DNA of 64,000 bases from an uncultured Candidatus Bathyarchaeia archaeon (GCA_964601325.1 CAZRNA010000001.1:4042-68041); one strand, 5' to 3'; numbered from the stretch's first letter, positions 26,677 through 53,917 are shown. The notes: generated from the letters alone by a model not told the origin. Numbers and translations are program-made.

Positions 26677-26955
26677 TTGTCGAAGGCAAAGCGCAAGGAA
26701 GAATACGAGGAACGAACAAAACAAGCCATGGCCGTTCTTAACGAAGTTTCCCAAGACACAACGACCCCTAGAAACATAAGACGAGCCGCCAAGACCGCCA
26801 TGGATTCACTTCAGACGCCGGGCGTCAGCTTAGGCGTGAGGGCCGCGAACTCCATATCAATCCTCGACGATATCAGTCAGGATCCGAACATGCCACAATA
26901 CACTAGAGTGAAGATCTGGAACGCCGTGAGCCTGCTCGAAGCAATCAAGGACTAA
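26677..26955 (+). CDS. UPF0147-family protein
   Basis: 'PRNIRRAAKTAMDSL...ILDDISQDPNMP...RVKIWNAVSLLEAI' matches the conserved UPF0147 pattern. A TATA-like 'CTATAAAAT' lies about 45 nt upstream. Confidence 0.55.
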   Translation: MSKAKRKEEYEERTKQAMAVLNEVSQDTTTPRNIRRAAKTAMDSLQTPGVSLGVRAANSISILDDISQDPNMPQYTRVKIWNAVSLLEAIKD

Positions 26956-27091
26956 CACATCACCAAAACGACGATACCGTTTCAGCAGTTCGCATGGCCG
27001 CTAACGTGAGCAGATCCGGCCACAGCTGAGATTTCTCGGCAGCAACGAAGGCTTAAATTCAACAAAATCAAGCCCGGTGCAAGTGACGTGA

Positions 27092-27505
27092 TTGGGCTTT
27101 CTTGGAAATCATGCACCCTACGCGGCAGACTTGAATCTCGTCATCCAAATAGTCGTGCTTTCCATGTTGCTGGCTGGAGCATACTTTGTGAGAGCGTCGA
27201 AACTCAAAACTCATAGTCGTCTTATGAAATCGGCAATTATCACCCAGCTTGGTGCGCTGATCCTTTGGATGGGCCCATCCTTGGTGCTCAACATCGAGGC
27301 GTTGAGGTCGTTCACGTCTGGTGTGATCATTACAGCTCTGCATGCTCTAGGGGGCGTTTTGGCGCTGGCTCTCGCGATCAGTGCCTCTTACCATAGAACA
27401 ATTGGCTCTTTGCAGTTGAAATGGACTATGTGGTCAGCTTTCATCGTGTGGACTTCGACCGTAGTTCTCGGAATAGGCTTCTACGTTTACTACTACTTGC
27501 ACTGA
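27092..27505 (+). CDS. Hypothetical four-TM membrane protein
   Basis: 137 aa with four hydrophobic helices. Confidence 0.35.
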   Translation: MGFLGNHAPYAADLNLVIQIVVLSMLLAGAYFVRASKLKTHSRLMKSAIITQLGALILWMGPSLVLNIEALRSFTSGVIITALHALGGVLALALAISASYHRTIGSLQLKWTMWSAFIVWTSTVVLGIGFYVYYYLH

Positions 27506-27558
27506 AACTGCCTCGCAGCCACAAAGAGAGGCAATGCATTCCAGTGGTCTTTTGGAGC

Positions 27559-28419
27559 ATGAGCCTAATGAAACGACTCCAGCTTGACGAAAAAATCGAT
27601 CTCAGGCTTGCCTCAAGACTCGCGCTCCGATTCTACGCTGACACTAGACCACACACTCTTCAGACAGGAGGACTTCACAAGGGTGCCATTGTTGTCTGTA
27701 ACGGTACAGAACTTGTCGAAGAGGCACTTGGAATCGGTGTCCCGGTGTGCAGGTATCAGGACGGTGCGCGATTCTCACTTAGCGCGGACACATTTCTCGA
27801 CGATTCCAACGAGAATCCAACACTGATCAAGATCTATGACATGAATGGGATAGCTTCGAAGAGATTCCGCGGATTGCCAATACGACGCGGAAGTTCCCTT
27901 GCGAGCCTTCTCAAGGCCCTGGAGAAAAGATATCGCGTCTTGCACAGGTTCAGAACCGTAGCAACCGTGATGCTGGACATTCTTAGTCTGTTTGGGATGA
28001 GAAATGAGTACTTAGAGTCCCCCTCAAAAGGACAAGTCGCGGTTACTTATCGAAGGAAGGGTAGAGGCTTGCAGATCGAGGCCACTCTCGACGAACTGTC
28101 CCGCGAAGGTCTACAGAACATCGTCTTTGCGAATGAGCAAGGAGGAAGGCTATTCAATGAATATGAGGATTCAACCGGGATCAGGCTTCATGACACACAA
28201 ATTGAACCTTGGCGAACGACCCAAGCAGAGTGGGCGAGTCTGCGTTCCCGAGTGTTCGGTGTTGGATTCAGACTAAACCGGCCAAGCGGGTGGCTCATGG
28301 TGAGGGGAAGAGAGGTCGTCAGAAACCGCATTTCTTGGTCCGGTCTAGACTTGTCTTGTGGGGAGTTGCCTCAGAAATTGGAGTATCTGGTAGAGATAGC
28401 CGGAGAATGTGTTAGTTGA
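27559..28419 (+). CDS. Hypothetical protein. The start is probably the internal Met at about 27559, and the gene is cotranscribed with the downstream B12-radical SAM gene
   Basis: The long ORF has a 4-nt overlap (28416) with the next gene. No motifs are recognised. Confidence 0.4.
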   Translation: MSLMKRLQLDEKIDLRLASRLALRFYADTRPHTLQTGGLHKGAIVVCNGTELVEEALGIGVPVCRYQDGARFSLSADTFLDDSNENPTLIKIYDMNGIASKRFRGLPIRRGSSLASLLKALEKRYRVLHRFRTVATVMLDILSLFGMRNEYLESPSKGQVAVTYRRKGRGLQIEATLDELSREGLQNIVFANEQGGRLFNEYEDSTGIRLHDTQIEPWRTTQAEWASLRSRVFGVGFRLNRPSGWLMVRGREVVRNRISWSGLDLSCGELPQKLEYLVEIAGECVS

Positions 28420-29792
28420 CTGACGTTGCTCTCGTCTATCCATACTTTCGGCCACCACGGGATGGATCTCCATTCAGATTTCCTCCTCTGGGACTTGGCT
28501 ACATCGCGTCCCACCTCAGGAATCACGGACTATCCGTGGGACTCGTTGACTGCACCTTCAAATCAGAAGATTCAGTGCTTCGCGCCGTCAGGGGTCTGAA
28601 CCCGTCGATCATTGGAGTCTACTCGATGTTTTCCATGAGCGCATCCACACTTCGCTTGGCCGGACTGTTGAAGGACGACTGCGATCTGCTCGTTGCCGGA
28701 GGCCCGCTTCCCACACTCTTCCCCGAAGACTACCTGAAGGTGTTTGACGCTGTCTGTATCGGGGAAGGAGAGGAAACGATGCTCGAACTCGCAGAAGCAC
28801 AGCTTGAACGACGAAAGCTCTCTGAGGTCAAAGGAATCTGTATCAGAACGGATCACGAGTCGAATACGACGAGCGAATCTATCATACGGACGCCTGCTCG
28901 GCCTCCAATTCATGATCTTGACTCCATTCCATTTCCCTCAAGAGATCTATTCGACAACGCGGAATACAAGGAGTATTTTAGGAGACGTTTCGGTCGTGAA
29001 GAGACTTCAATTATCACAACTCGGGGATGCCCATTTGATTGCGATTTCTGTAGCAGACCTATCTTCTCAAACCAGTTCAGAGCGAGATCCGCAGGAAATG
29101 TGGTCGATGAGCTAGAGCAGATTTCTGAACTCGGGTACGATTCTGTGTGGTTCTCCGATGATTGCTTCACACTAATCCCGAGCAGAGTTCTACATGTCTG
29201 TCGAGAGATCAAGAGCAGAGGCCTTGAACTGAAGTGGGAGTGCCTTTCAAGAGTCGACGGTTTTAGCGTTGACATGGCGAGGGAGATGAAAGCGGCTGGA
29301 TGCGAACGAGTATTCTTTGGAATCGAGTCCGGCGACGATGGAATTCTCAGGCAAATGAACAAACGAATTGATATCGATCAAGCACGCAAGGCCGTCGAGG
29401 CAGCTGCGAAGGCAGAGTTGAGGGCCGCCGCATTCTTCATCGTCGGCTATCCAGGAGAGACTGACTCAACGATACTACGGACGATTAGGTTCGCAAGTAG
29501 GCTTCCTCTCGACTACGCTTCATTCAGCCTTCCGTATCCGATTCCCGGGACCGGTCTCTATGACAAAGTCAAGGATAGACTGCGTGAACGGGATTGGCGG
29601 TATTCAAGTTGGAGACTGATCGACCATTCACTGCTGTATGACTCTGATTTCTCGGAGTTCAAACTGAAGTTCGCGATTGCCAAGGCAGCTATTCAACACC
29701 GAGTGAGGAAGCACGGCGGCAAATGGGGATACAGATTGTTCGGCACGCCCTTCGAAGCGCTTACGGACTTGGCCTTCAGGAGCCTGAGCTAG
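28416..29792 (+). CDS. Cobalamin-binding radical SAM enzyme (class B radical SAM)
   Basis: The N-terminal domain looks like a B12-binding Rossmann fold ('VALVYPYF...LGLGYIASHL...CDLLVAGGP'). Radical SAM motif 'CPFDCDFC' (CxxxCxxC). Confidence 0.75.
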   Translation: MTDVALVYPYFRPPRDGSPFRFPPLGLGYIASHLRNHGLSVGLVDCTFKSEDSVLRAVRGLNPSIIGVYSMFSMSASTLRLAGLLKDDCDLLVAGGPLPTLFPEDYLKVFDAVCIGEGEETMLELAEAQLERRKLSEVKGICIRTDHESNTTSESIIRTPARPPIHDLDSIPFPSRDLFDNAEYKEYFRRRFGREETSIITTRGCPFDCDFCSRPIFSNQFRARSAGNVVDELEQISELGYDSVWFSDDCFTLIPSRVLHVCREIKSRGLELKWECLSRVDGFSVDMAREMKAAGCERVFFGIESGDDGILRQMNKRIDIDQARKAVEAAAKAELRAAAFFIVGYPGETDSTILRTIRFASRLPLDYASFSLPYPIPGTGLYDKVKDRLRERDWRYSSWRLIDHSLLYDSDFSEFKLKFAIAKAAIQHRVRKHGGKWGYRLFGTPFEALTDLAFRSLS

Positions 29793-31087
29793 AGATCGAT
29801 TTCGATAGGCACATTCGGGTGATAGCGTCGAGGATCCGTTACTTGATTCTTCTGAGTGCGGGGATTCAACTCGCGCTCGGCGCCTTCACGGCACACCCCT
29901 ATGATGGACGAGTGTTCATGGCTGCTGGATACTTGGTGGCTCATGGCAATTCGCCCTATGTCCTCACGAGCGTTTCCAGCGTCTTTGGGAATTCACTCTT
30001 CCCCGACCCCGTTCCAGGCATCGGCTATCCTCCTCCTTGGGGCCTAGTATTGGCGTTATCCTATCTTGTCAGCTACAATATTGTCCCTAACCTGATCCTG
30101 TACAACTTCGCCATCAAGATCCCCATAGTCATCGGCAATATCCTTCTGGCTTTGCTAATCGGAAAAATGATCCTCAGCGCGACTTCTGATTCAACCAAGT
30201 CAGCAAACGCAACTCGCTTCATGCTGTTCAACCCATTTGTCATCTACACTACAGCCATCTGGGGACAATTTGATACGCTCAGTGCACTTCTGATGTTGCT
30301 CGCCATTTTCGAACTCACTCAAGGCAAGCGGCGTCTTTCAGCCTTGGCCTTGGGAGGAGCTATTGCATTCAAGTTGATCCCTGTTGTCCTGCTTCCTCTT
30401 CTGATCTTGCACGTAAGAAAACGCGAAAACTGGTTCCGTGCGTTCGAGTATTTTGCGTTCGTCGCTGCCGTTGTTGGGCTCTCATTTTTCCCGTTCTTGA
30501 TCGGTTGGAGTCCCCAACCCATCATCGATAACTGGAACATCCATTTTGTCCGAATCGGGGCGTTCTCGCCGATGAACGTATTACTTCTCCTTGGATTAGC
30601 CGGCGCCACAAATGGATTCAGCTTCCTGGGATTCCTCTGGTTGCCCTCTCTAGCGTTGGTCTACTTCATTCTCATTAGAAGAGGGACCATCAGATCCACG
30701 GACCTTGTGCTTCCAGCTCTCGCCGTGATGTTGGGAGTCTTTCTCACCAGATCATGGGTATCTGAACAGAACCTGAACTTTGTCGTTCCCCTTGTTCTCT
30801 TATCCTCCGTTAGGCAGGGCTGGTCTAAGAAGTGGGTTTCATCTACGTGGTTGCTCCCGCTGATATTCGCAGTGGTCCATACTTCGCCCACGAGCATGCT
30901 CTTCCTAACAGCGCCTCAGCCACTCATAGAACATACCCAACTCCAGCTGCAGCTCTTCTTCACGTCAGAGTTGGGCAGCGTAATACGAGCTTCGATAACG
31001 CTTGTGTGGCTCGCCGTGGGCCTTTCGCTCCTCCGAAAGTCGGTTCATTCCACCGGTCCCTCTCTTTCTGAAAGAATACCACAATAG
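29723..31087 (+). CDS. GT-C fold polyprenyl-phosphate-sugar-dependent membrane glycosyltransferase (DUF2029 / GT87-like)
   Basis: About 12 TM helices with a DUF2029-like N-terminal region. The start is uncertain because the ORF overlaps the radical SAM end by 70 nt. Confidence 0.5.
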   Translation: MGIQIVRHALRSAYGLGLQEPELEIDFDRHIRVIASRIRYLILLSAGIQLALGAFTAHPYDGRVFMAAGYLVAHGNSPYVLTSVSSVFGNSLFPDPVPGIGYPPPWGLVLALSYLVSYNIVPNLILYNFAIKIPIVIGNILLALLIGKMILSATSDSTKSANATRFMLFNPFVIYTTAIWGQFDTLSALLMLLAIFELTQGKRRLSALALGGAIAFKLIPVVLLPLLILHVRKRENWFRAFEYFAFVAAVVGLSFFPFLIGWSPQPIIDNWNIHFVRIGAFSPMNVLLLLGLAGATNGFSFLGFLWLPSLALVYFILIRRGTIRSTDLVLPALAVMLGVFLTRSWVSEQNLNFVVPLVLLSSVRQGWSKKWVSSTWLLPLIFAVVHTSPTSMLFLTAPQPLIEHTQLQLQLFFTSELGSVIRASITLVWLAVGLSLLRKSVHSTGPSLSERIPQ

Positions 31088-31196
31088 ATGTTCAGAATAG
31101 CCCTTCATGAAAGCGCTGCATCCTTGACGAACTTACGAATGAAAGCTTCCCTGTGAAATAGGTTCACGTTCAAACTGGTTCCCTGTTTAAGCTCGT

Positions 31197-31730
31197 GTGC
31201 CTCGTTTGAACGACATGTTGCTTGGAGGATCTGGAATGAACGCGAAATCTATGGTAGTTGTCGCGACGCTTCTTGCTATGGTAATCTTGGCTTACAACGC
31301 AAGCGCCTATGCATGGAACTCTTCTCCTCAGATAACGAATTCTCTTGACGGTTCTGGGAACACAGTTCTCACTATCCAATTCGATTTCTCGCAAATGTCG
31401 GATCCGCCCACGGCGAGTCACCACCCGACTGACTTCCAGGTTCGCACCTCTACAGACGGATCTTCATGGACCGAGCAGGCTGTCGTCCACATCACATCGA
31501 TACCGGCAACAACCGTATTCACCGTGACCTATTCTCTCGGGAAAGTCACAGGCGATCTTCAAGCCCAAGCAAGACTCAATTGTAACGTCCATGGATGGAG
31601 TAACTGGGGACCGGACCCGGCAGTCCCTGTTCCGGAATTTCCCTTCGGAATGGTCACTGTGACCTCACTGTTGCTCCTGGTGGGAAGCCTCCTACTGGTC
31701 CGCAGGGAACGCCCAGCGTATTCGTCCTAA
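31197..31730 (+). CDS. Secreted protein with signal peptide and PEF-CTERM-like C-terminal sorting signal
   Basis: N-terminus 'MNAKSMVVVATLLAMVILAYNASAYA'. C-terminus 'PVPEFPFGMVTVTSLLLLVGSLLLVRRERP' has a PEF tripeptide, then a TM helix, then an Arg-rich tail. Confidence 0.45.
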   Translation: MPRLNDMLLGGSGMNAKSMVVVATLLAMVILAYNASAYAWNSSPQITNSLDGSGNTVLTIQFDFSQMSDPPTASHHPTDFQVRTSTDGSSWTEQAVVHITSIPATTVFTVTYSLGKVTGDLQAQARLNCNVHGWSNWGPDPAVPVPEFPFGMVTVTSLLLLVGSLLLVRRERPAYSS

Positions 31731-31829: not shown

Positions 31830-32711
31830 CTAGGCGCTCTGCTCTCTTAGTCTCTTTTCGGCTAACCGGCAGTAGTCTCGATTAATTTCCACGCCTATTC
31901 CAATTCTATTGGTCTGCAGGCATGCAATCAGTGTGGTTCCGCTACCGAGGAATGGGTCCAAGACGACGTCTCCTTTGTAGCTGAACAGTTTGATGCATCG
32001 TTTCGGCAGTTCGATGGGGAACGGTGCCGGGTGCCCAATCTTGGTTTTGCTTTCGCCGCTGAAGTTCCACACACCATTCGTCCATTGGATGAACTCATCG
32101 CGTGTGACATCTGATTCTCCTTTCCGCATCTTCTCCCACCTAGCTTTGTACATGACCAATATGGTCTCAACTGGCGCGATCACATAGGGTGCGGAAGCGC
32201 TCATCCACGATCCCCATGCTGTGCGTCTAGAGATGTTTTGCTCATTCCAGACGATTGTTGAGTGATACTTCCATCCAACTTCCTTCGCGATGGTCGTGAT
32301 GTCGGCGCACACGCTCTGCTGACCACCCTTGTTCTTGTCTAGCGGGATATTCAGGCACAGGCGCCCGTCAGGTCTGGCCAAGCCTAGAATCTTCGACAGC
32401 CACTTCCTGGTGAAATCGAGATACTGATCATACGGCAGATTGTCGTCATAGCCCCGGTACTTGATGTTGATGTCGTATGGAGGCGATGTCACGATGAGGT
32501 CTATACTCTCGTCTTGTATCGCATCGATCTCCAAGATGTCCGTATTGTAGATGCGTAGCGAGCTTGCCTCTGAGAACGGTTTCGTAGCTTTTTCAGGCGC
32601 CATTTGCTTCAGGCTTCTTCGAGCGATCCATCTGTTCACTGACGGCTTTACTCGTGGCAATGTCAAGGTATAAGAGTTTGACAAGGACTCCGGGGCGTTC
32701 ATACACTTCAA
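31830..32711 (-). CDS. Beta-class DNA methyltransferase (N4-cytosine or N6-adenine), apparently orphan
   Basis: 'IVTSPPYDINIKY' (motif IV, SPPY) precedes 'LDPFLGSGTT' (motif I, FxGxG), the beta-class order. No restriction endonuclease candidate is adjacent. Confidence 0.75.
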   Translation of the reverse strand: MKCMNAPESLSNSYTLTLPRVKPSVNRWIARRSLKQMAPEKATKPFSEASSLRIYNTDILEIDAIQDESIDLIVTSPPYDINIKYRGYDDNLPYDQYLDFTRKWLSKILGLARPDGRLCLNIPLDKNKGGQQSVCADITTIAKEVGWKYHSTIVWNEQNISRRTAWGSWMSASAPYVIAPVETILVMYKARWEKMRKGESDVTRDEFIQWTNGVWNFSGESKTKIGHPAPFPIELPKRCIKLFSYKGDVVLDPFLGSGTTLIACLQTNRIGIGVEINRDYCRLAEKRLREQSA

Positions 32712-32723
32712 GTAAGGTCTCTA

Positions 32724-33605
32724 ATGCCCATGCACTCTCACGCTTCCACCACCAAAGCGTTAGTGGTAGCCGTGGGCATAACCGCCTGTTTCTTTGTCAT
32801 TGAATTGGTCGGGGGAATTCTAACAAACAGCTTGGCTCTCCAAACTGACGCATTTCACATGCTGACCGACGTTGTGGCTCTTGCGTATGCCTTGGTTGCC
32901 GTTCGGCTTGCACAACGACCAGTAAGTTTGAGGAGAACCTACGGATATTATCGTGTCGAGATTCTTTCAGCGTTCTTGAACGGCATATTGCTTTGGGCCG
33001 TTGTGATATTCGTGTTCTACGAGGCCATCCAACGAATCCAATATCCGTCAGATGTCCAAAGCCTGAATATGCTGATTATCGCGGTTCTCGGACTCGTAGC
33101 GAACGGCCTAGTTGCAGCAACTCTCTCACGATCTAGAAATGCGAGCCTGAATCTCAAGGGCGCGTTCTTACATGTGATGGCTGATGCCTTGGGCTCGGTA
33201 GGGGCTATTTCTGCTGGGATAATTATGTTCTTCACTGGCTGGTACCAGGCCGACCCCATAGCTAGCATCATGATTGGCGTGCTGGTCTTCTACAGTTCCG
33301 GAAAACTGGTTCGCGACTCTGTGAACGTCCTCCTCGAAGGAGTCCCCAGCCATATCGACGTGTCCGCAGTTGAGCGCAGGATACTCGGGATGAAGGGCGT
33401 GAAGAACATCCACGATCTCCACGTATGGTCCATAGCCGACACCAAGATGTGCTGCATGAGCAGCCACGTGGTTGTGGAAGATGACACAAACGGCAAGGAC
33501 TTGGTCACGAAGCTCATTCACATTCTCAAGGAAGAGTTCGGAATCGATCACACAACTTTTCAGCTGGAAGACGAGAACTATCCGAAGGCTGCTGGCGAAC
33601 ACTAG
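32724..33605 (+). CDS. Cation diffusion facilitator family metal efflux transporter (CzcD-like)
   Basis: 'SLALQTDAFHMLTDVVAL' carries the H/D metal-site residues in TM2, and 'FLHVMADALGSVGA' the corresponding residues in TM5. Six TM helices plus a C-terminal cytoplasmic domain. Confidence 0.8.
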   Translation: MPMHSHASTTKALVVAVGITACFFVIELVGGILTNSLALQTDAFHMLTDVVALAYALVAVRLAQRPVSLRRTYGYYRVEILSAFLNGILLWAVVIFVFYEAIQRIQYPSDVQSLNMLIIAVLGLVANGLVAATLSRSRNASLNLKGAFLHVMADALGSVGAISAGIIMFFTGWYQADPIASIMIGVLVFYSSGKLVRDSVNVLLEGVPSHIDVSAVERRILGMKGVKNIHDLHVWSIADTKMCCMSSHVVVEDDTNGKDLVTKLIHILKEEFGIDHTTFQLEDENYPKAAGEH

Positions 33606-33674
33606 AAGAATTGAGAACGCCCAAAACCTTAACGCCGCCCCTCAAGTAGGTCTGGAATAAGGAGGGAAACTGGC

Positions 33675-34646
33675 ATGCCTGAAAGCGCGATTAGAACACG
33701 CGGCCTCACAAAAGTCTTCGGAAAATTCACTGCTGTAGACGGCTTGAACTTGGATGTCAAACAGGGTGAATTGTTTGGCCTGCTTGGTCCAAACGGTGCC
33801 GGGAAGACTACTACCGTTCGCATGCTCTGTACCCTTATCGAACCGACAAGCGGCACGGCGACCGTTGCCGGTTACGACCTCGCAAGGGAGGCCGCCAAAG
33901 TCAGACGTGAGATCGGCGTTGTCTCGGAGGGTGTCATGCTCTACAAGGAGCTGACTATTGAGGAGAATCTGAGATTTCTCAGCAGACTGTACAACCTCCC
34001 TAGCGGAGAAGCAGAGAACAGGATAGCGCACTTGCTCGAGATGTTCAGGTTCGAAGACAAAGCAAAACGAATGGTGAAGGCCCTCTCGTCAGGTTGGACC
34101 AAGAAAGCACTGATTTGTGCAGCCCTCCTTCACAATCCGAAGATACTCTTCCTTGATGAAGTGACCTCTGGCCTAGATCCGCAGTCGGCAGCAGCCCTTC
34201 AAGACTTCACTAAGAGCCTTTGCAAGGAAGGTGTCACAGTCATCTGGACAACTCACTACATGACGGAGCCCGAGAAGATCTGCGACCGCGTGGGAATCGT
34301 GTTTGCGGGGAGACTGATCCAGGTAGGCTCGCCCAGTGATCTGAAGCGCAAGGTAAGCGAGCTCTCCGTCATGGAGGTTGAGACGCCAGGATTGTCAACA
34401 CAACAGCTGGAGAAGATCAAGAACATAGAAGACGTAGCCAACATCTCTTACAGTGATCCGGTCCTCAGAATCACGTGCGTGCATGATCACGCACTTGCAG
34501 AAAACGTAACGAGAATCCTTCTGTCCGAAGGTGCCAAGATCAGATCGATCAACACGAAAGGACCGACACTGGAAGAAGCTTTCATCAAACTGACTGGTGG
34601 CGAAGAAGAGATCGACCGCTTCCTCGAGAAAGGCCGGACAGAATAG
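33675..34646 (+). CDS. ABC transporter ATP-binding protein (ABC-2 / DrrA-like exporter ATPase)
   Basis: Walker A 'GPNGAGKTT', signature 'LSSGWTKKA', Walker B 'ILFLDEVTSGLD' and an H-loop. Confidence 0.85.
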   Translation: MPESAIRTRGLTKVFGKFTAVDGLNLDVKQGELFGLLGPNGAGKTTTVRMLCTLIEPTSGTATVAGYDLAREAAKVRREIGVVSEGVMLYKELTIEENLRFLSRLYNLPSGEAENRIAHLLEMFRFEDKAKRMVKALSSGWTKKALICAALLHNPKILFLDEVTSGLDPQSAAALQDFTKSLCKEGVTVIWTTHYMTEPEKICDRVGIVFAGRLIQVGSPSDLKRKVSELSVMEVETPGLSTQQLEKIKNIEDVANISYSDPVLRITCVHDHALAENVTRILLSEGAKIRSINTKGPTLEEAFIKLTGGEEEIDRFLEKGRTE

Positions 34647-34692
34647 ACGCAACAAGCGAGCGAAGCCAAATCACACAGACGTGGATGCATTA

Positions 34693-35846
34693 ATGTCTAC
34701 TAGGACGTTCCTCGGCGATCTCTTGGCAGTCATGACCAACGAATTTCGCCTTTTGAGGCGTAATCGTTCCGCGATCATAATCTCCCTTGTCATTCTGCCG
34801 ATCTTCTTCACAATATCTCTTGGAGGAGCTAGTGGCGGGGCGGGTGAGCACTTCACACCGACAGCACATATAGCCATCGCCTACGTTGATAATGATCTGA
34901 CGATTGCTTCAGGTCGCCTCTTCGCGACGCTTTCAAGCTCGGGGAATTTCAACAATCTAGTTCAAGGTTACAGCGAAGAGAGCGCCATTAGAACACTAGG
35001 AACCGGAAAGATCTACGCAGCAATCATAGTACCCAAGGGCTTTGAAGGTAACCTTGCAAAGGACAAGCAAGTCACCTTGGTAGTCTACGTGGATGACAGC
35101 ATAAACGAGCTAGGAGGCCAAGTCGTCTCAAGCCTACAGACCAGCCTGCAGAACTTCAGCCCGCGTGCTGAGGTAGGACCCCTTCTCAGCAAGGGTGCGT
35201 CACAAGTCGAGATTATTCAGAAAGGAGCCAAGTTCTCGAGTTTCAACATAGGCCTGACGATCATTCTAGCTTTGGTCATAATATTCGCAACATTCTACGA
35301 AATCGCGGGGGGCATGTCACGCGAGAGCGAGGAGGGAACCTATGTGGCCTGCTCATGAGCCCTATCAGTCTTGGAGCTGTAATGCTTGGAAAGACAACGT
35401 ATGATGTGGCTCTCAACATAGCACGTACGCTCATAGTTTTCGCACTCGCCTTCTACGCTTACGGAGCGAGGCCGAGTACCGACTTCGCTACAATCTTAGC
35501 GATCTCACTCCTCATAGCTTTGCTGACGATGGGGTTTGGATTCTTGATTTCTGCGATTGGAATAGGGGTGAGAGCGGTCATCATCATCGAGTTTTTCCTC
35601 GTGTTGTTCCTTTTCGCGTTCAGCGGGTTCATTATCGATAGAGAACTGCTGAGAGGGATATCAAGCACAATCTCGTACCTGCTGCCATGGGCGTATGGCA
35701 TCGAGATATTGAAGCGTACCATACTCATTGGACAACCTCTGCTTACCCTGGCGACCCCGCTCGGATTCATCATAGTATCGATCGTGACGTTCTACGGCAT
35801 TGCCTACGTTCTTCTGAGGTTGTCGCGAGAGAGGCTTGTCACATGA
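34693..35846 (+). pseudogene. ABC-2 family permease split into two ORFs (34597..35358 and 35355..35846) by an apparent -1 frameshift near 35340
   Basis: The conserved TM2-TM3 linker motif 'IAGExExGTLExLLxSP' is read as 'IAGGMSRESEEGT' in frame 1 and continues as 'LCGLLMSPIS' in frame -1. The two halves together make about 416 aa with 6 TM helices. Confidence 0.45.
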
Positions 35847-36955
35847 ATCGTTTCGCTCGCGACACGACAACTGTCACTCTCAAGGAACTGAAACAGCTCC
35901 TGCGCGATCCGCTTTCCTTGGCTCTGACGATAATGTTCCCGATATTCTTGATCCAAATCTTTGTTGTCATAGTCACAGCATTCGGTGCCCCTAGCTACAA
36001 CGTGGCTGTGGTCGTTTCAGATCTTGATGGCTCACCCATGTCGAAGAGTCTGGTAGACAAACTGGCCAACTCACGTTTGATCAAGGTGACACAATTCGTT
36101 CAAACAGAAGAACAGGCTTTGCATTCCGTCGAATCAGGAGCGGCGACAGGAGCAGTAATCATTCCAAAGGGCTTCGGCGACGCACTACTCAATAATCGGC
36201 AGGCCTTCGTTGTTCTTCAGACTGACAACTCGAAGATCACATCTTCTTCCTTGGTTCAGAGCGCCGTAAGCGAGAGCACGCAGAGCCTTCTGGAGCTGGT
36301 GAGCGCCCGCCTCGGCGCAACGCCTGTGGAGGTGATACTGAGGCCCATCTCGGGTCGTCCTCCATCAGGAGATTTTATTCTGCCGGGCATGCTGGGTATG
36401 ATTACGATACTCGGCGCCTTCGACGATATTGTGAACGCCATAACAAGGGAACGCGAACGCGGCACATTTCCACGCCTCGTTCTTACGCCCACGAGTATTC
36501 TATCAATCTATAGCGGAAAGATATCTGCGACAGTTGTCCTTAACGCAATCCGAACAACTCTCATGATCGTAATCTTTGTGCTGACTGGCTTGGTAATAAG
36601 GGGGAATGTGCTCTTGGTCTATTTGACGACTACTCTGATCGCGGTATTCACCATGTCGTTGGGCTTGTTGCTTTCCACAAAGGTTCATAGTTCAGCAACA
36701 CTGACGATCCTCGAAATCGCCATCACGTTTCCGCTTTTCCAGCTTGCAGGCGCGATACAGGCCCCGGAGTCATTGGCGTCAGGAGGAAGAGCGATTGCGG
36801 CAATGTTGCCGTGGACATACGGGAACGACGCCCTAAGACGTGTCATCTACCTTGGAGTTGGGTTCGACGCGTTAGCTGTCGACTTCGTGGTTCTCTTGTT
36901 GAGCAGCCTTGTCTTGTTGCCAATTGCAACCCTGCTGTCAAAACGCACCATGTAG
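35843..36955 (+). CDS. ABC-2 family permease (second membrane subunit)
   Basis: An ATGA start overlaps the previous stop. N-terminus 'LKELKQLLRDPLSLALTIMFP', a large extracytoplasmic loop, then five C-terminal TM helices. Confidence 0.65.
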   Translation: MNRFARDTTTVTLKELKQLLRDPLSLALTIMFPIFLIQIFVVIVTAFGAPSYNVAVVVSDLDGSPMSKSLVDKLANSRLIKVTQFVQTEEQALHSVESGAATGAVIIPKGFGDALLNNRQAFVVLQTDNSKITSSSLVQSAVSESTQSLLELVSARLGATPVEVILRPISGRPPSGDFILPGMLGMITILGAFDDIVNAITRERERGTFPRLVLTPTSILSIYSGKISATVVLNAIRTTLMIVIFVLTGLVIRGNVLLVYLTTTLIAVFTMSLGLLLSTKVHSSATLTILEIAITFPLFQLAGAIQAPESLASGGRAIAAMLPWTYGNDALRRVIYLGVGFDALAVDFVVLLLSSLVLLPIATLLSKRTM

Positions 36956-37032
36956 AATCCAGAGGCCAGCACTGGCAGGAGAATTGATATACACGGACTC
37001 GAAGGCTGAATGCAAGCCATGCTGGAGATGAT

Positions 37033-38289
37033 GTGATCTTGACTCGGCGAGTATTGGTTCTCTCGATCATGCTGATCACCGTGATGGCCATGCCTTTTGT
37101 TAGCAGCATCGGAGCGGTCTCTGAACCAAACGTTGTTGTTACGTCGGTGTATTGGGGAACCAACCCGCTAGGGGGCATCTCTGTGCATCCGGGTGACACG
37201 AACATACCCCTGTCGATTGATCTGTCCAACGCCGGAGATGCAGCAGCCCGCGATGTCAGTGCTACGCTTGTGTTGGCGTCTCCGTTCAGCTACGCCTACA
37301 ACGTTAACGGAAGCGAAGTGAACGCTGGAACAGTTGACCAGAGCGCCGGCGATATTCAAGCAGGCTACTCCTTCACTTTGCGGTATGCTTTGACAGTTGC
37401 TTCGGATGCGATTGCGGGGATTCACAGGCTCACGCTCATAGTTGATTACAAGACTGCCAGGGAACTGCTGCCCGTGGAGAAGACCCTCTCCGTGGACGTG
37501 CCCGTGTGGACGGGTGATGTTCGCGTTCAAAACGTCGTGACCGTACCCGCGAAAGTCTACCCAGGCGACAATCAAATCACCGTGAAGGCGTGGCTCGTGA
37601 ACTCGGGGACTGGATCAACGGCCGACTTTCAAGTGCGCCTCGTTCTGCAGGACCCGTTCCAAGCGTCCTCCGGAGGGTCGGACACGTTCTTTCTCGGAAC
37701 GATGCAGCCAGGACAGGTCAGCGAAGCAGACTTCTACGTTGACATCAGCAAATCGGCCCAGTTCGGAAGCTACAACCTCAAACTCGTCACCGTCTCAGCT
37801 GGATCCAGCGGACAGGTGGAGATTGGACAGATCCCGATCTACGTGAGCGAGAAAGTAGTATTCGAAGTCGTTCAGTTGGAGCCTAAGGTTGTTCACGCCG
37901 GCGACTCTGGCGTCAGCATACAAGTAACTATCAAGAACACTGGAACCGTCGCTGCAGATTCAGTTAGGGCACAGCTGATGGTCGGCAACTACTTCTCAGG
38001 AACGCTCACCGACTTCCTCGGGACGATGCAACCAGGCGAATCAAAGACCGCATACCTGACAGTTGACGTAGACTCAAAGGCCACCTCTCAAGTATACAAG
38101 ATGGATTTGCGCCTTGACTGGACCCAATCAGACAACAGCCTCGACAACACTCTCCCAGTGGAACTGCAGGTAGCCTCTGCTGAACTTCCACTGCCATTGA
38201 TTGCAGTGGCCGTCGTGTTGCTCGTGCTTGTAGCTGCAGTTCTCGTTCGCAGAAGAAGAAAGGCTCAAGAACAGAAGCTCAAGACTTGA
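37033..38289 (+). CDS. Cell-surface (S-layer-like, COG1361/CARDB-like) protein with signal peptide and C-terminal TM anchor
   Basis: A signal peptide is followed by repeated beta-rich segments ('DFQVRLVLQDPF', 'DFLGTMQPGE...AYLTVDV'). The C-terminus 'LPLIAVAVVLLVLVAAVLVRRRRK' is a TM anchor. The gene is adjacent to the ABC-2 operon. Confidence 0.5.
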   Translation: MILTRRVLVLSIMLITVMAMPFVSSIGAVSEPNVVVTSVYWGTNPLGGISVHPGDTNIPLSIDLSNAGDAAARDVSATLVLASPFSYAYNVNGSEVNAGTVDQSAGDIQAGYSFTLRYALTVASDAIAGIHRLTLIVDYKTARELLPVEKTLSVDVPVWTGDVRVQNVVTVPAKVYPGDNQITVKAWLVNSGTGSTADFQVRLVLQDPFQASSGGSDTFFLGTMQPGQVSEADFYVDISKSAQFGSYNLKLVTVSAGSSGQVEIGQIPIYVSEKVVFEVVQLEPKVVHAGDSGVSIQVTIKNTGTVAADSVRAQLMVGNYFSGTLTDFLGTMQPGESKTAYLTVDVDSKATSQVYKMDLRLDWTQSDNSLDNTLPVELQVASAELPLPLIAVAVVLLVLVAAVLVRRRRKAQEQKLKT

Positions 38290-42989: not shown

Positions 42990-43658
42990 ATGGAGCCTCA
43001 GGGTTATATTCTACGGCAAGCCCAACATCTAGACGGGACGCTCTTGAAGAGGCAGGACGCGATCAGAGCCATCGTTATCGTCTGCGTGACCCTCGCAGCA
43101 CTCGGGATTCTTGTTCCGGCCATGGCACCGGCAATTACCCCAATGCAGGGACCCGTGACAACCACGGTCACGACGACATATTCTTCTGGTACCACGACGG
43201 CGCAAGTCGTTCTCACATTCATTTTCTCGAACATAACGACGGGTATGACGTATACGTCGTACACAGGCACAACTACGAGCACTGTGCCAACTGTCACGAC
43301 CTACCCCGTGACTGTGACTGTTTCCACGACATCTTGGACTGCAGTGTCAACTCGCACTTGGAAATCGACACTAGGGACGAAGACTGTCCCGTCCACGTCC
43401 ACAACCTTGACGACGGAAACCGTGACCACAACTGGTCAAACGATAGCGACTACGGCGAACCAAACCATAACTTCGACATATTACACGACGACGAGCAACA
43501 TCTCGACGAGCGTGCTTACTGTGACGGGAGCGCCGACGCCTACTCCTCCGCCTATACCCGGTTTTCCCTTGGAATCGATTCTAGCTGGACTTGGATTAGG
43601 CTTGCTGGGCGTGCATCTGGTCTACCGAAATCGCCGAGCAGGGAGGGGACACTCTTGA
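42990..43658 (+). CDS. Thr-rich secreted surface protein with signal peptide and PGF-CTERM archaeosortase sorting signal, tandem copy 1
   Basis: The signal/TM segment 'AIVIVCVTLAALGILVPAMAPA' is followed by more than 120 aa of T/S/V-rich low complexity. C-terminus 'PPPIPGFPLESILAGLGLGLLGVHLVYRNRRAGR'. Confidence 0.55.
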   Translation: MEPQGYILRQAQHLDGTLLKRQDAIRAIVIVCVTLAALGILVPAMAPAITPMQGPVTTTVTTTYSSGTTTAQVVLTFIFSNITTGMTYTSYTGTTTSTVPTVTTYPVTVTVSTTSWTAVSTRTWKSTLGTKTVPSTSTTLTTETVTTTGQTIATTANQTITSTYYTTTSNISTSVLTVTGAPTPTPPPIPGFPLESILAGLGLGLLGVHLVYRNRRAGRGHS

Positions 43659-44272
43659 AGAGACGGGACGCGATCAGAGCCCTCGTTATCGTCTGCGTGA
43701 CCCTCGCAGCACTCGGGATTCTTGTTCCGGCCATGGCACCTGCAATGACCCCCATGCAGGGAGTCGTGACAACCACAGTCACGACGAGCTATAATACGGG
43801 ATACGGTTGGTGGAATTTCACTTTCACATTCATTTTCCACAACAGCACAACATCCACGATATCTACCGCGACGACTACCTCAGGTACGTCCTGGCGCTCA
43901 AGTATCACGTATTACACTACGACCATGGTTTCTCCATCAACCTCTTGGACTACATCCACCACATACAAAACGACCACCACCAGTGGGACCACGATTGTCC
44001 CTTCGACATCCACGACTCGGATAACAACAGGCGCGATTACGACCAATCGAACGATATCGACAACTGTGAGCCAAACGATAACCTCAACATTTCACACGAC
44101 CACAAGCCTAACCACAACGAGTACCTATTCCGTAACCGCGACTACGCCGCCTACTCCCCCACCTATTCCTGGCTTCCCGTTGGAATCGATCTTAGCGGGA
44201 CTCGCGTTAGGCCTACTGGGCGTGCATCTCATCTATCGAAATAGGCGAGCAAACAGGAAACGCTCATCATAA
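43656..44272 (+). CDS. Thr-rich PGF-CTERM surface protein, tandem copy 2 (TTG start after a GGAGGGG SD)
   Basis: The signal-peptide DNA and PGF-CTERM DNA are nearly identical to copy 1, and the middle is diverged and Thr-rich. The annotated 434-aa ORF 42968..44272 reads copy 1 in the wrong frame. Confidence 0.5.
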
Positions 44273-51622: not shown

Positions 51623-52768
51623 TTGTGGGAGTATGTTCCTATGCCGTTGAAGACCCAACTGCATGACTACCATCTACAGAATGGTAAGGTCGTTGACTTT
51701 GCAGGATTCGAGATGCCAATATGGTACAAAGGGATAATCCCCGAGACGTTGGTGGTTAGAAACCAGGTTGGCATTTTCGATGTCTCGCACATGGGCAGAG
51801 CGATAGCTCGAGGCACAAATGCCGAAGCATTCCTCAACTTCGTAACCACCAACGATGTCAGCGCGCTTAAGCCCGGACAAGCACACTACACGTTACTATG
51901 TAACGATAGAGGGGGCATCAAGGATGATATCATCGTGCTTCGCCTCGAGCCGGAGCGATTCGTCGTCATCTTCAACGCTGGCAACCGGAAGAAGGATGCA
52001 GACTGGCTGAAGGCACAAGCTGCGCGAAGCGACGCAGATCTCACAGACGTATCAGATGAGACAGCTCTAATCTCACTTCAAGGCCCGAAAGCTCAAGCCA
52101 CACTCGGAAAACTGTCGAAGATAGAACCGTCGAAGGTTCCGCGGTTCGGATGCGTAGAGACAGAGGTCGATGGCATTGGATGTCTTGTCTCTCGAACAGG
52201 CTACACGGGTGAGGATGGGTTTGAGATACTGGTGTGGGAATGCCCGATCTCCAATCCCGGAAAAGCTGAACGTGTTTGGAACTCTTTGCTTGCCGGTGGT
52301 AAAGAGTTCGGGATAGAACCCTGCGGGTTGGGCTCCAGGGACGCTCTGAGATTAGAGGCAGGGATGTGCCTCTACGGAAACGATATTGACGAAGAAGTTA
52401 GCCCGTACCAGGCGCGTCTTGGGTTCACGGTGAAGCTCACGAAGTCGGACTTCATCGGCAAGAAGGCTCTTGAGAAACAGAAGGCTGAAGGCGCGAGACT
52501 TCTGCGAATAGGCCTGAAGGCTACAGCTCAAGGCATACCAAGACCCGGATATGAGATCGTGAAGGATACTACCGCTATTGGAAAGTTGACGAGCGGAACC
52601 TTCTCGCCGACTCTGAACCTGGGCATCGCGATGGGATACGTTCCTCGTGAACACGCAACTGAAGGTCAAACGCTTGGAATCATGATCCGAGGAAGACGAG
52701 TAGATGGTGTTGTCACAAAGTTCCCATTCTATCCTACCGACAAGTACGGCTGGCAGAGAAAGACATAG
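51623..52768 (+). CDS. gcvT: Glycine cleavage system T protein (aminomethyltransferase)
   Basis: The N-terminal signature 'FAGFEMPIWYKG...DVSHMG' and a GcvT_C barrel of about 370 aa are present. Confidence 0.8.
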   Translation: MWEYVPMPLKTQLHDYHLQNGKVVDFAGFEMPIWYKGIIPETLVVRNQVGIFDVSHMGRAIARGTNAEAFLNFVTTNDVSALKPGQAHYTLLCNDRGGIKDDIIVLRLEPERFVVIFNAGNRKKDADWLKAQAARSDADLTDVSDETALISLQGPKAQATLGKLSKIEPSKVPRFGCVETEVDGIGCLVSRTGYTGEDGFEILVWECPISNPGKAERVWNSLLAGGKEFGIEPCGLGSRDALRLEAGMCLYGNDIDEEVSPYQARLGFTVKLTKSDFIGKKALEKQKAEGARLLRIGLKATAQGIPRPGYEIVKDTTAIGKLTSGTFSPTLNLGIAMGYVPREHATEGQTLGIMIRGRRVDGVVTKFPFYPTDKYGWQRKT

Positions 52769-52801
52769 CTTCGAAGCGGGAGACGAGCTGCGACGGTCGC
52801 C

Positions 52802-53917
52802 GTGAAGCGCCTCGGATTGATCGTCAACCCGATCGCGGGCATGGGAGGAAAAGTCGGCCTAAAAGGCACCGACGGACCGGAAATCCTTGAACGCGCAATT
52901 AGGCTCGGCGCAGCACCCGTTGCGCCCCAGCGAGCTGTCGAAGCTATGCGGACTCTCCGCACCCACTACACGTCCTCACTAGAACTAATCACATGCTCTC
53001 AGAAGATGGGAGAGGAGTCTGCGAAAGAGGCTGGTTTCAGTCCAGAAGTCGTCGACGGACCATCCAGTCAGCAAACAACATCCGATGACACGAAGAGAGC
53101 AGCCGAGGTCCTACAGACGCGCAGGGTTGACTTGCTTCTCTTCGTTGGCGGCGACGGCACCGCTCGAGATATCTGCCACGTGATCGACCAGGAAACCCCA
53201 TGCCTTGGTATTCCAGCCGGAGTCAAAGTCTACTCTTCTGTGTTCTCAACCAATCCTCGAACCGGCGGCGACTTGACCGCCAGCTACTTGGATGGCGAAG
53301 CCAGACTCGCGGATGCCGAAGTATTGGACATTGACGAATCCGAGTTCAGGGCGGACAGAATATCGGTTCGCCTCTACGGATATCTCCGAGTTCCATTCCA
53401 CGCCGCGAATCTTCAGAACTCCAAGACCGGTTCCCTCTTGGATGAGGTCTCTGCACAAAACGCGATAGCGAAGTTCGTGGGCGAGGAACTCAAGGATGAC
53501 CGGACGTACATCATCGGACCAGGATCCACAACCGCAGCACTCGGCAGACGTCTAGGATTCGAGAAGACGATGCTCGGGGTCGACGCTATTCGTGGGAGAG
53601 CTCTCATCGAGAAAGACCTTTCCGAAAAAGGCATCATGCAACTGCTGGCTCAGAGCCGAGCATCGATAATTGTGACCCCGATCGGCGGACAGGGTTTCAT
53701 CTTCGGCCGAGGCAATCCTCAGATCAGCGCACAGGTGATCAGACGAGTTGGTAAGGAGAATATCATAGTCATCGCCACGGAACGCAAGATACACTCACTC
53801 AAGACCAAACGCCTACTGGTCGATACAGGAGATACAGAACTGGATAAGGAGTTGGGCGGATACATGAAGATCATAACAGGATACAGAGAATTCTCCGTTC
53901 TTCCAGTCAACGCGTAA
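52802..53917 (+). CDS. ATP-NAD kinase / diacylglycerol-kinase catalytic-domain family protein (COG3199-like)
   Basis: 'GLIVNPIAGMGG' and 'LLLFVGGDGTARDI' carry the GGDG motif. Confidence 0.5.
   Translation: MKRLGLIVNPIAGMGGKVGLKGTDGPEILERAIRLGAAPVAPQRAVEAMRTLRTHYTSSLELITCSQKMGEESAKEAGFSPEVVDGPSSQQTTSDDTKRAAEVLQTRRVDLLLFVGGDGTARDICHVIDQETPCLGIPAGVKVYSSVFSTNPRTGGDLTASYLDGEARLADAEVLDIDESEFRADRISVRLYGYLRVPFHAANLQNSKTGSLLDEVSAQNAIAKFVGEELKDDRTYIIGPGSTTAALGRRLGFEKTMLGVDAIRGRALIEKDLSEKGIMQLLAQSRASIIVTPIGGQGFIFGRGNPQISAQVIRRVGKENIIVIATERKIHSLKTKRLLVDTGDTELDKELGGYMKIITGYREFSVLPVNA

Follow-up and report, generated by a model that had tools for sequence, protein, structure and literature searches.

A genuine one-base deletion splits the first permease gene of a Bathyarchaeia ABC-2 exporter operon and probably marks its recent inactivation

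The first permease gene of an ABC-2 exporter operon in an uncultured Bathyarchaeia archaeon carries a one-base deletion, which divides the gene into two open reading frames (ORFs) of 221 and 163 aa in two frames. This deletion is genuine, and one natural Bathyarchaeia population has it fixed in its consensus. A sequence-only reading of the window, i.e. the whole 64,000-nt stretch of DNA analyzed here, had proposed three causes for the break: a recent inactivating deletion, a sequencing error or programmed -1 frameshifting. The first is the best supported, and we consider it reasonably likely that the deletion represents the recent inactivating loss of an ABC-2 transporter in a dispensable cluster.

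The operon encodes, in order and all on the plus strand, a DrrA-type ATPase, two paralogous ABC-2 permeases and a three-domain CARDB surface protein of 418 aa (37033-38289). This anatomy, including the ATGA at 35843, had been recognized from the sequence and is borne out by the ORFs and the profile matches. The ATPase is a DrrA-type nucleotide-binding subunit of 323 aa (33675-34646) with a good Shine-Dalgarno sequence, AAGGAGGG, about 7 nt 5' of its start. It matches Pfam ABC_tran (109 bits, 3.4e-31) and DrrA1-3_C, and is 96% identical to its L003 orthologue with every motif retained. Against NCBIfam TIGR01188 (drrA) it scores 309.6 bits (cut-off 312.45) over the full length of the profile, and NCBIfam holds no equivalog-level match for the exporter of the window. 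Permease 2 (35843-36955, 370 aa) is an intact paralogue of permease 1, with about 26% identity between the two (tblastn). It matches the full PF12698 profile with 112.2 bits and its orthologues over their full length, with dN/dS values of 0.09-0.11, and its start codon overlaps the stop codon of permease 1 in the ATGA at 35843-35846. Rfam and tRNA scans of the window gave no matches. A second, redundant paralogous ABC-2 system was also sought in the window and rejected; the similarly sized ORF pair at 51623-53917 encodes a glycine-cleavage T protein and an NAD kinase.

The homologues of permease 1 (more than 100) are single proteins of about 384 aa that read EEGTYARLLMSP. The best 120 homologues are likewise all single proteins, of about 346-416 aa and up to 95% identical, with the same EEGTYARLLMSP reading; the idea that homologues might encode two separate half-permeases thus finds no counterpart among them. 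In the window, the N-terminal fragment (34693-35358, 221 aa; start ATG 34693, stop TGA 35358) comprises TM1, an extracytoplasmic domain and TM2, and matches PF12698 (ABC2_membrane_3) with 63.5 bits (cut-off 31.6) over profile positions 3-191 of 347. The C-terminal fragment (35355-35846, 163 aa; ATG 35355, TGA 35846) comprises TM3 to TM6, and matches PF01061 with 56.8 bits (cut-off 26.9) and PF12698 over profile positions 198-346. Alignment of the permease HMMs across the frames thereby places the two halves on consecutive PF12698 segments in different frames. The 221-aa product is also called by other gene-calling pipelines, and the exact 163-aa protein is found on 6 contigs of other assemblies. 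Another 163-aa protein, P0125, was considered as an independent second split and ruled out: its contig begins 31 nt upstream and reads SEEGTYARLLMSP in frame, and it is therefore a contig-edge gene-calling artefact.

The lesion itself can be placed precisely. The window keeps EEGTY in the first frame (ACC TAT, T-Y) and then reads GTGGC at codons Ala218-Arg219, where relatives have GCGCGC (L001) or GCACGT (L002); therefore, the missing base lies within 35344-35348 on the plus strand, beside a C-to-T substitution that corresponds to A218V. The sequence-only reading was right that the first permease is broken, but had set the break at 35338-35342, about 4-8 nt upstream of the true site. It had also attributed the break to a missing C in a C-run, and site 35344-35348 contains no such run; nor do the intact homologues have the linker form GT-L-x-x-LL that it had assumed, since they read EEGTYARLLMSP instead. 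Repair by inserting a C at 35340, which would give GTLCGLLMSP, was discarded because T-Y remains in frame and the homologous sequence is GTYARLLMSP; the corrected restored peptide is GTY(V/A)RLLMSP. Comparison of the locus with related genomes, in which permease 1 is intact and in a single frame, confirms the deletion. The blastn alignment of L001 with the window contains one single-base gap as the sole indel in 1834 nt, and the neighbouring genes are all full length relative to L002 and L003. The N-terminal half ends with EEGTYVACS and a stop, so that four of the 384 native residues are lost by the frameshift (ARLL to VACS). At 35355-35358 (plus strand) the sequence reads ATGA, in which the stop of the N-terminal half overlaps the start of the C-terminal half, the Met being native Met222 of EEGTYARLLMSP. 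This overlap is absent from the earlier reading.

To locate the break in the protein, helix positions of permease 1 were taken from the AlphaFold model of P0001, an intact, 95%-identical orthologue (mean pLDDT 72). The model has six TM helices in one chain, with a short helix at 216-222 (TYARLLM) between TM2 (183-214) and TM3 (227-257). The window departs from this single six-TM chain, which is cut within helix 216-222 where VACS replaces ARLL. A218, R219, L220 and L221 are each at least 90% conserved in 68 homologues, and the window has V, A, C and S at these positions. Foldseek with the P0001 model against the PDB gives ABCH-9C as the best match (E = 4e-11, probability 1.0), followed by ABCG1, NosY, KpsM, Wzm, PmtCD and ABCA1, and the permease profile also matches ABCH among the PDB sequences (E = 1.4e-10). 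The TM2-TM3 loop of ABCG2 forms the coupling helix (PMC12250437). As positioned on the model, the break falls in the TM2-TM3 coupling helix, which in the type V fold docks on the ATPase.

In the mechanism that we propose, the one-base deletion would shift the frame inside the short cytoplasmic TM2-TM3 helix of permease 1, one half of a putative heterodimeric ABC-2 exporter. Translation would end four codons on, at the TGA that overlaps native Met222, yielding a 221-aa fragment with VACS at its end; re-initiation could possibly add a second fragment of 163 aa. Transporter function would most likely be lost, as a recent first step of gene loss. With a premature stop and a 1-nt deletion relative to more than 100 intact orthologues, permease 1 bears the disabling lesion of a pseudogene, and the split protein is probably no longer functional. 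The lesion is also probably recent. The polarized window branch carries 24 synonymous and 10 non-synonymous changes, and its dN/dS of about 0.14 equals the background. At most about 10% of this branch could have been neutral; the lesion would therefore be young. Across both permease 1 ORFs and the partner genes dN/dS is 0.06-0.18, and no second lesions (stops or indels) were found in either permease 1 half, the ATPase or permease 2; both observations speak against inactivation. A relaxed-selection test for a pseudogene accordingly shows neither a raised dN/dS (0.14-0.18 on the branch itself) nor further stops or indels; the unraised value is expected if the lesion is very young. The split allele is restricted to one population of at least 99.9% identity and one recombinant haplotype, P0137. 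Its presence on this second protein haplotype, which also speaks against inactivation, indicates that the allele is old enough to have been involved in recombination. P0137 was also considered as a sign of long persistence and was downgraded: its 8 differences from the window all lie within residues 78-126, where the window shares synonymous states with L003, and this sharing marks a recombination tract, not tree-like divergence.

Further support for gene loss comes from close relatives, in which a span corresponding to 33616-36941 is deleted, as delimited by gene tables, blastn breakpoints and junction sequences. The missing stretch is 33616-36689 in L042, about 33741-36806 in L043 and 33620-36941 in L044/L045, so that the deletions take out the ATPase and permease 1 together with the greater part, or nearly the whole, of permease 2. 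The breakpoints differ among L042, L043 and L044/L045, which keep 3' remnants of permease 2 of 266, 149 and 14 nt, respectively; L043 also retains a 5' remnant of the ATPase gene. Microhomology is found at the deletion junctions (TGCCGTGGAC in L043 and AACG in L044), and the CARDB gene of all of these loci is 92-95% identical to that of the window at the nucleotide level. The cluster has thus been removed outright, and independently, in at least two, and probably three, other lineages. Since close relatives have deleted the ATPase together with both permeases, the pump is dispensable in the subclade, and the frameshift is therefore most likely ordinary gene loss in progress.

A different outcome, which we regard as possible but doubtful, is that the split permease still works. 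Ribosomes ending at TGA 35356-35358 would re-initiate at ATG 35355, and the 221-aa and 163-aa fragments would enter the membrane as separate chains and join permease 2 and two ATPases in a working exporter. Synthesis of the fragments would be marked by the N-terminal peptide MSPISLGAVMLGK or by a C-terminal peptide ending in ESEEGTYVACS. The stop/start ATGA is identical to that at the native permease 1/permease 2 junction, an observation that counts against inactivation, and overlapping stop/start pairs in archaea are tightly coupled by termination-reinitiation (PMC6728339, PMC10666635). On the model, the break lies on the cytoplasmic side between two TM helices, so both pieces would keep their native topology. 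Membrane transporters such as LacY function when expressed as two fragments. Just four residues are lost, in a class of change that amounts to about 1.6-3% of possible one-base deletions: 29 of 899 distinct deletions give an ATGA-type overlap with no more than six residues lost, and 14 of the 29 lie at the lesion site, the class having been defined after the data were seen. The ORFs and partner genes are otherwise intact and constrained (the dN/dS range of 0.06-0.18 given above), and the split allele prevails in the consensus of five or more samples and is known from at least two protein haplotypes. However, a very recent lesion predicts the low dN/dS equally well, and none of the more than 100 homologues is split. 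The cut and the change from ARLL to VACS strike four nearly invariant residues of the coupling helix, ATG 35355 lacks a suitably spaced Shine-Dalgarno sequence (the end of GAGGAGGG is 18 nt upstream) and the transporter is dispensable in sister lineages. The full form of the proposal, in which a type V ABC permease consists of two chains, with the cut exactly at the coupling helix, and is still assembled and functional by way of ATGA termination-reinitiation, seems to us rather unlikely, and recent inactivation remains the preferred reading.

An assembly or sequencing error, with an intact 384-aa gene in the true genome, is highly improbable. Single-base indels are a common artefact, and comparable breaks are seen in other genes of the long-read MAG loci of relatives (L005, L008, L010 and L018). 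In the present case, however, at least seven contigs from other assemblies, 99.9-100% identical and representing at least four SNP haplotypes, carry the deletion, with an identical junction in L030, L032-L035, L038 and L039; the deletion recurs across L030-L035 and L038-L039. Five or more samples and three assembly pipelines (MEGAHIT-style k141 names/ENA, JGI and Logan) are represented. The contigs differ mutually at SNPs 34238, 34925, 35474 and 37210, and are therefore not derived from one read set. The lesion site is not a homopolymer, and no other indels occur over 20.6 kb relative to L038. The extra C that a plain sequencing error had been expected to reveal is not seen, as the other assemblies show no added base.

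Even less credible is the restoration of a full-length permease by programmed -1 ribosomal frameshifting or transcriptional slippage, for which the predicted junction-spanning product is EEGTYV-x-LLMSPISLGAVMLGK: the two frames do overlap by 186 nt and the overlap contains a single heptamer of the formal X XXY YYZ type (G GGG GGC, at 35307), but this heptamer sits 37 nt upstream of the lesion and is kept in intact homologues as Ala-Gly-Gly codons, a shift there would turn the invariant GMSRESEEGT motif into GHVTRERGGNLCG, the region 35340-35350 contains no slippery sequence, runs of A or T on which the polymerase could slip are absent, the RNA at 35335-35460 (126 nt) has a folding energy of -31.2 kcal/mol, no better than its shuffles (mean -30.7; z = -0.15), and all of the listed homologues are in one frame, none of them sharing the shift of the window.

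The CARDB surface protein has a hydrophobic/signal helix at its N-terminus and matches CARDB (PF07705) with 44.3 bits (cut-off 22.7) and NPCBM_assoc with 45 bits (cut-off 24.4); at its C-terminus, RRRRK comes after a TM helix. Its AlphaFold model (mean pLDDT 80) contains beta-sandwich domains at about 34-158, 163-271 and 277-381 and a helix at 387-415; the fold search returned generic Ig-repeat matches only (integrin legs and macroglobulin domains), with no functional lead. The sequence-only reading described such clusters as widespread in archaea and bacteria; the comparison made here covered Bathyarchaeia, where the CARDB gene is found beside the transporter in 27 loci with three different arrangements. 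In most relatives it is co-operonic with the gene for a protein of about 1270 aa, which is absent here. The suggestion of a role for the surface protein as cargo or obligate partner of the exporter is supported by this conserved linkage but weakened by three transporter-less lineages, in which the CARDB gene is intact and under purifying selection (dN/dS 0.06-0.14); therefore, no obligate dependence is seen. The literature on COG1361 and ABC transporters yielded passing mentions only.

Taken at face value, these results describe ordinary microevolution: one Bathyarchaeia species complex is losing an accessory exporter, through a point frameshift in one population and through microhomology-flanked deletions in others. 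For annotators, the two ORFs belong to a single broken gene, whose interruption is genuine and should not be corrected as an error. The CARDB surface protein shows no obligate dependence on the neighbouring transporter. The intact, split and deleted alleles, apparently from one project (adjacent JGI sample numbers, L001 and L044), provide a natural experiment on the role of a conserved, uncharacterized Bathyarchaeia envelope cluster. If the split protein works, it would be informative on coupling-helix mechanics in type V ABC exporters; a true two-chain permease would mean that energy coupling in the type V fold does not require the TM2-TM3 coupling helix to be covalently continuous, and that gene fission has been caught mid-process in an uncultured archaeon.

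Finally, we compared the operon with known systems. The nearest solved structure to the permease is insect ABCH-9C (8z01/8yzp), and ABCG1/ABCG2, NosFY, KpsMT and Wzm-Wzt are more distant. The operon resembles type V/ABC-2 exporters in its HMM matches, which exceed the Pfam cut-offs, in a predicted set of six TM helices, the first two of which are separated by a domain, in the conserved E-x-E-G-T that closes TM2 ahead of a short helix, and in the DrrA-type ATPase encoded by a separate gene. It differs in that the membrane domain is a predicted heterodimer of two paralogues (about 26% identity) instead of a homodimer or a fused half-transporter, and in that permease 1 is in two pieces. As in NosDFY (NosD) and GldAFG (GldG), the gene of a secreted or anchored beta-rich protein adjoins ATPase and ABC-2 permease genes, and NosY is among the fold matches of the permease model. 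However, the window has, in place of a beta-helix NosD or a GldG-type protein, a CARDB/Ig-like partner that consists of three domains and carries a TM anchor of its own, and, unlike an obligate NosDFY-like pairing, the CARDB protein and the transporter are not kept or lost together. With the ATGA gene pairs that undergo termination-reinitiation (Huber et al. 2019, PMC6728339), the split gene shares the 4-nt overlap, the co-directional ORFs and products that are parts of one complex, although its overlap is an accident of a frameshift within one gene and the coupling is only putative. Lastly, young pseudogenes and gene loss in accessory clusters show the same single frameshift relative to intact orthologues, the same presence or absence of a cluster among close relatives and the same deletion scars with microhomology. 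The present case differs from these in its unraised dN/dS, in the lack of secondary lesions and in a frameshift that creates a stop/start overlap, which could allow a two-piece protein.

In the window (G+C 52.8%), a tandem series of five + strand open reading frames occupies 33675–38289. They encode a DrrA-type ABC ATPase (33675–34646), assigned by a profile match, an N-fragment (34693–35358) and a C-fragment (35355–35846) of permease 1, the complete paralogous ABC-2 permease 2 (35843–36955) and a 418-aa CARDB/NPCBM_assoc protein (37033–38289), predicted to carry three Ig-like β-sandwich domains on a transmembrane anchor and giving generic fold matches only. The permease 1 fragments match successive halves of one ABC2_membrane_3 profile, the N-fragment the first half only (positions 3–191 of 347) and the C-fragment the second half only (positions 198–346). 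These frames and profile matches bear out the operon anatomy of the sequence-only reading, including permease 1 in two frames, and its ATGA overlap at 35843 is present. Immediately upstream is a cation-diffusion-facilitator gene (32724–33605), divergent from an N6/N4 DNA methyltransferase gene (31830–32711, − strand) with no obvious restriction partner nearby; both are kept in all close relatives, including the transporter-deleted ones. Further upstream, a variable island (26954–31299) encodes a hypothetical protein of 332 aa, a B12-binding radical SAM enzyme (28416–29792) and a GT87-like glycosyltransferase (29723–31087), along with a 177-aa ORF. L002 and L038 share the island, L003, L004, L043 and L044 lack it, and alignments with island-less loci skip from 26953 to ~31127–31300.

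Next, we located the lesion. With the repaired permease 1 as query, 358 homologues were found, and the best 120 of these are all single proteins (~346–416 aa, mostly 384 aa, up to 95% identical), so the separate half-permeases that had been envisaged in homologues do not occur among them. The junction in intact homologues is EEGTYARLLMSPISL, and the window reads GAG GAG GGA ACC TAT GTG GCC TGC TCA TGA (EEGTYVACS-stop). The closest intact relatives compared read GGA ACT TAT GCG CGC CTG CTC ATG AGC (L001) and TAT GCA CGT CTG CTC ATG AGC (L002), which shows that Thr–Tyr is still in the original frame. Window 35344–35348 (GTGGC) has five bases versus six in the relatives, and the lesion is one base missing in the Ala218–Arg219 codons together with a C-to-T change. 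The break proposed earlier is real; its position, a missing C in 'AACC' at 35338–35342, was a few bases off, and the rebuilt linker GTLCGLLMSP is artefactual, the two frames having been joined too soon. The permease 1 gap is the sole indel versus L001 in 1834 nt, and the neighbouring genes each align full length with their L002 and L003 orthologues.

The fate of the transporter in close relatives favors inactivation. Among non-identical CARDB proteins, the three closest (95–96% identity) were traced to their contigs, and the transporter is absent from all three lineages. Window position 33615 is joined to 36690 in L042; in L043, ~33740 is joined to 36807 inside a 10-nt microhomology (TGCCGTGGAC), retaining the ATPase Shine–Dalgarno sequence and first 22 codons; and in L044/L045, 33619 is joined to 36942 at AACG, leaving the last four permease 2 codons alone. 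These permease 2 and ATPase remnants prove deletion rather than ancestral absence. The L043 deletion is certainly independent of the L042 and L044 events, whereas the L044 junction may have arisen by continued erosion of an L042-type scar. The same species complex also harbors intact alleles (L001; L002–L005 and many other contigs), and adjacent JGI sample numbers yielded both L001 and L044. Given independent deletions alongside intact alleles, the exporter is an accessory, dispensable trait under repeated loss in this subclade, and inactivation is accordingly the most parsimonious explanation for the frameshift. Of the causes offered by the sequence-only reading, we thus favor the inactivating deletion and reject sequencing error and frameshifting; we consider it rather likely that a recent, population-fixed loss of one base in the coupling helix has inactivated one permease subunit of this accessory ABC-2 exporter, which relatives have already deleted.

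The linkage of the CARDB gene was compared across 27 related genome loci, from Bathyarchaeia/Bathyarchaeota MAGs except for two probably mis-binned records; the nearest species representative to the window organism, itself a Bathyarchaeia archaeon, shows 87% protein-level identity. All 27 Bathyarchaeia loci keep the ATPase, permease 1 and permease 2 in synteny, and a CARDB homologue (45–56% identity in distant loci) is nearby wherever the sequence extends far enough: directly downstream in the clade of the window, upstream in divergent orientation in six loci, and ~4 kb downstream in convergent orientation in most. In the latter two arrangements, the CARDB operon continues with a secreted protein of ~1250–1277 aa that is anchored at its C terminus (for example, L022 8297–12130, − strand; also L006–L029), the pair adjoining the ABC-2 genes. 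This protein, with no informative domain matches and weak fn3_3/CarboxypepD_reg similarity only, could be a major envelope protein; neither the 64-kb window nor L002–L005 carries a homologue. The conserved linkage suggests a shared cell-envelope role for CARDB and the transporter. The CARDB gene is intact in all transporter-less strains and under purifying selection (dN/dS 0.06–0.14), and its retention without the pump argues against obligate dependence as the cargo or partner once proposed. Downstream, at 43044–44265, two tandem paralogous genes encode small Thr/Ser-rich proteins; the PGF-type C-terminal anchor of their L044 orthologues (PIPGFPLESILAGLGLGLL...) suggests archaeosortase-processed surface proteins, probably glycosylated.

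Pairwise dN/dS of permease 1 is 0.12–0.15 among intact relatives and 0.18 for the window versus L001; for the ATPase, permease 2 and CARDB genes it is 0.06–0.14. After polarization of the window/L001 differences with L002–L004, the window branch of permease 1 carries 24 synonymous and 10 non-synonymous changes (dN/dS ~0.14), with a neutral share of at most about one-tenth. This low value fits either a very recent lesion or a permease still under selection. The new TGA lies within ATG-AGC (Met222–Ser223), so the N-fragment stop and the native in-frame ATG of the remainder overlap as ATGA (35355–35358), the same arrangement that links permease 1 to permease 2. Since such overlaps support termination–reinitiation in archaea (PMC6728339, PMC10666635), permease 1 may still function as two pieces, a reading to which we give a rather low probability. 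Permease 1 allows 899 distinct one-base deletions, of which 29 would create an ATGA-type overlap at a cost of no more than six residues, a class defined post hoc after the data were seen, and 14 of the 29 fall at this site; no Shine–Dalgarno sequence lies at a useful distance from the C-fragment ATG. The YVACS ending recurs in a second N-half haplotype, P0137, which has eight residue differences, all in positions 78–126, where window synonymous states match L003 rather than L001. The difference is thus a recombination tract, and P0137 shows that the frameshift allele is old enough to have recombined and no more. At 34951–35058 (codons 87–122), window synonymous codon states are common to L003 and not the otherwise-closest L001, and the identity of L042 and L043 to the window is mosaic along the locus; together these point to frequent homologous recombination in the species complex.

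Sequencing error and programmed frameshifting are, taken together, very improbable. By exact-sequence look-up, identical 163-aa and 221-aa products occur on contigs from JGI samples 3300010302, 3300010319, 3300025145 and 3300022556, in ENA assemblies ERZ27245470 and ERZ27245614 (with the k141 contig naming characteristic of MEGAHIT) and in a Logan assembly of SRR5214703. The deletion-bearing contigs are 99.9–100% identical to the window with zero indels, in one case across 20.6 kb, and all carry the same junction. They are separated by SNPs at 34238, 34925, 35474 and 37210, and the deletion is common to at least four haplotypes, hence to different read sets; these assemblies leave practically no room for a random error of sequencing or assembly. 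Some long-read MAG loci of relatives have genes broken into 2–3 tblastn pieces in differing frames, resembling ordinary indel errors: the ATPase in L008 (484–1444), L010 (3633–4401) and L018 (4990–5957), and a Cob gene in L005 (9635–10196). These are probably assembly indel errors and illustrate artefactual frameshifts in this cluster. The two permease 1 frames overlap by 186 nt, with a single formal slippery heptamer, G GGG GGC at 35307, 37 nt upstream of the lesion and unchanged in intact homologues, where it encodes Ala-Gly-Gly. Programmed frameshifting and transcriptional slippage are rejected because slippage at this heptamer would swap the invariant GMSRESEEGT for unrelated sequence, nothing slippery occurs at 35340–35350, folding of the downstream 126 nt is no more stable than that of shuffled sequence (z = −0.15) and no homologue shares the arrangement.

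Finally, P0001, the intact orthologue with 95% identity, was modelled with AlphaFold from an alignment of 68 sequences (mean pLDDT 72); the model predicts TM1, a mixed α/β extracytoplasmic domain, a long TM2 helix (183–214), a short helix (216–222, TYARLLM), TM3 (227–257) and three further TM helices. Residues A218, R219, L220 and L221, all with at least 90% conservation among 68 homologues, are replaced by V, A, C and S. By sequence profile and by fold alike, the insect ABCH-9C lipid exporter is the closest solved structure; next come ABCG1, NosY, KpsM, Wzm and PmtCD, and every one of these has the type V ABC exporter fold. In ABCG2, which shares this fold, the TM2–TM3 loop serves as the coupling helix, relaying the movements of the ATPase (PMC12250437). 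In permease 1, the frameshift breaks the chain within this helix, a functionally serious lesion although only four residues are lost. The exporter is an uncharacterized member of a well-known transporter family, and the process is likewise well known.
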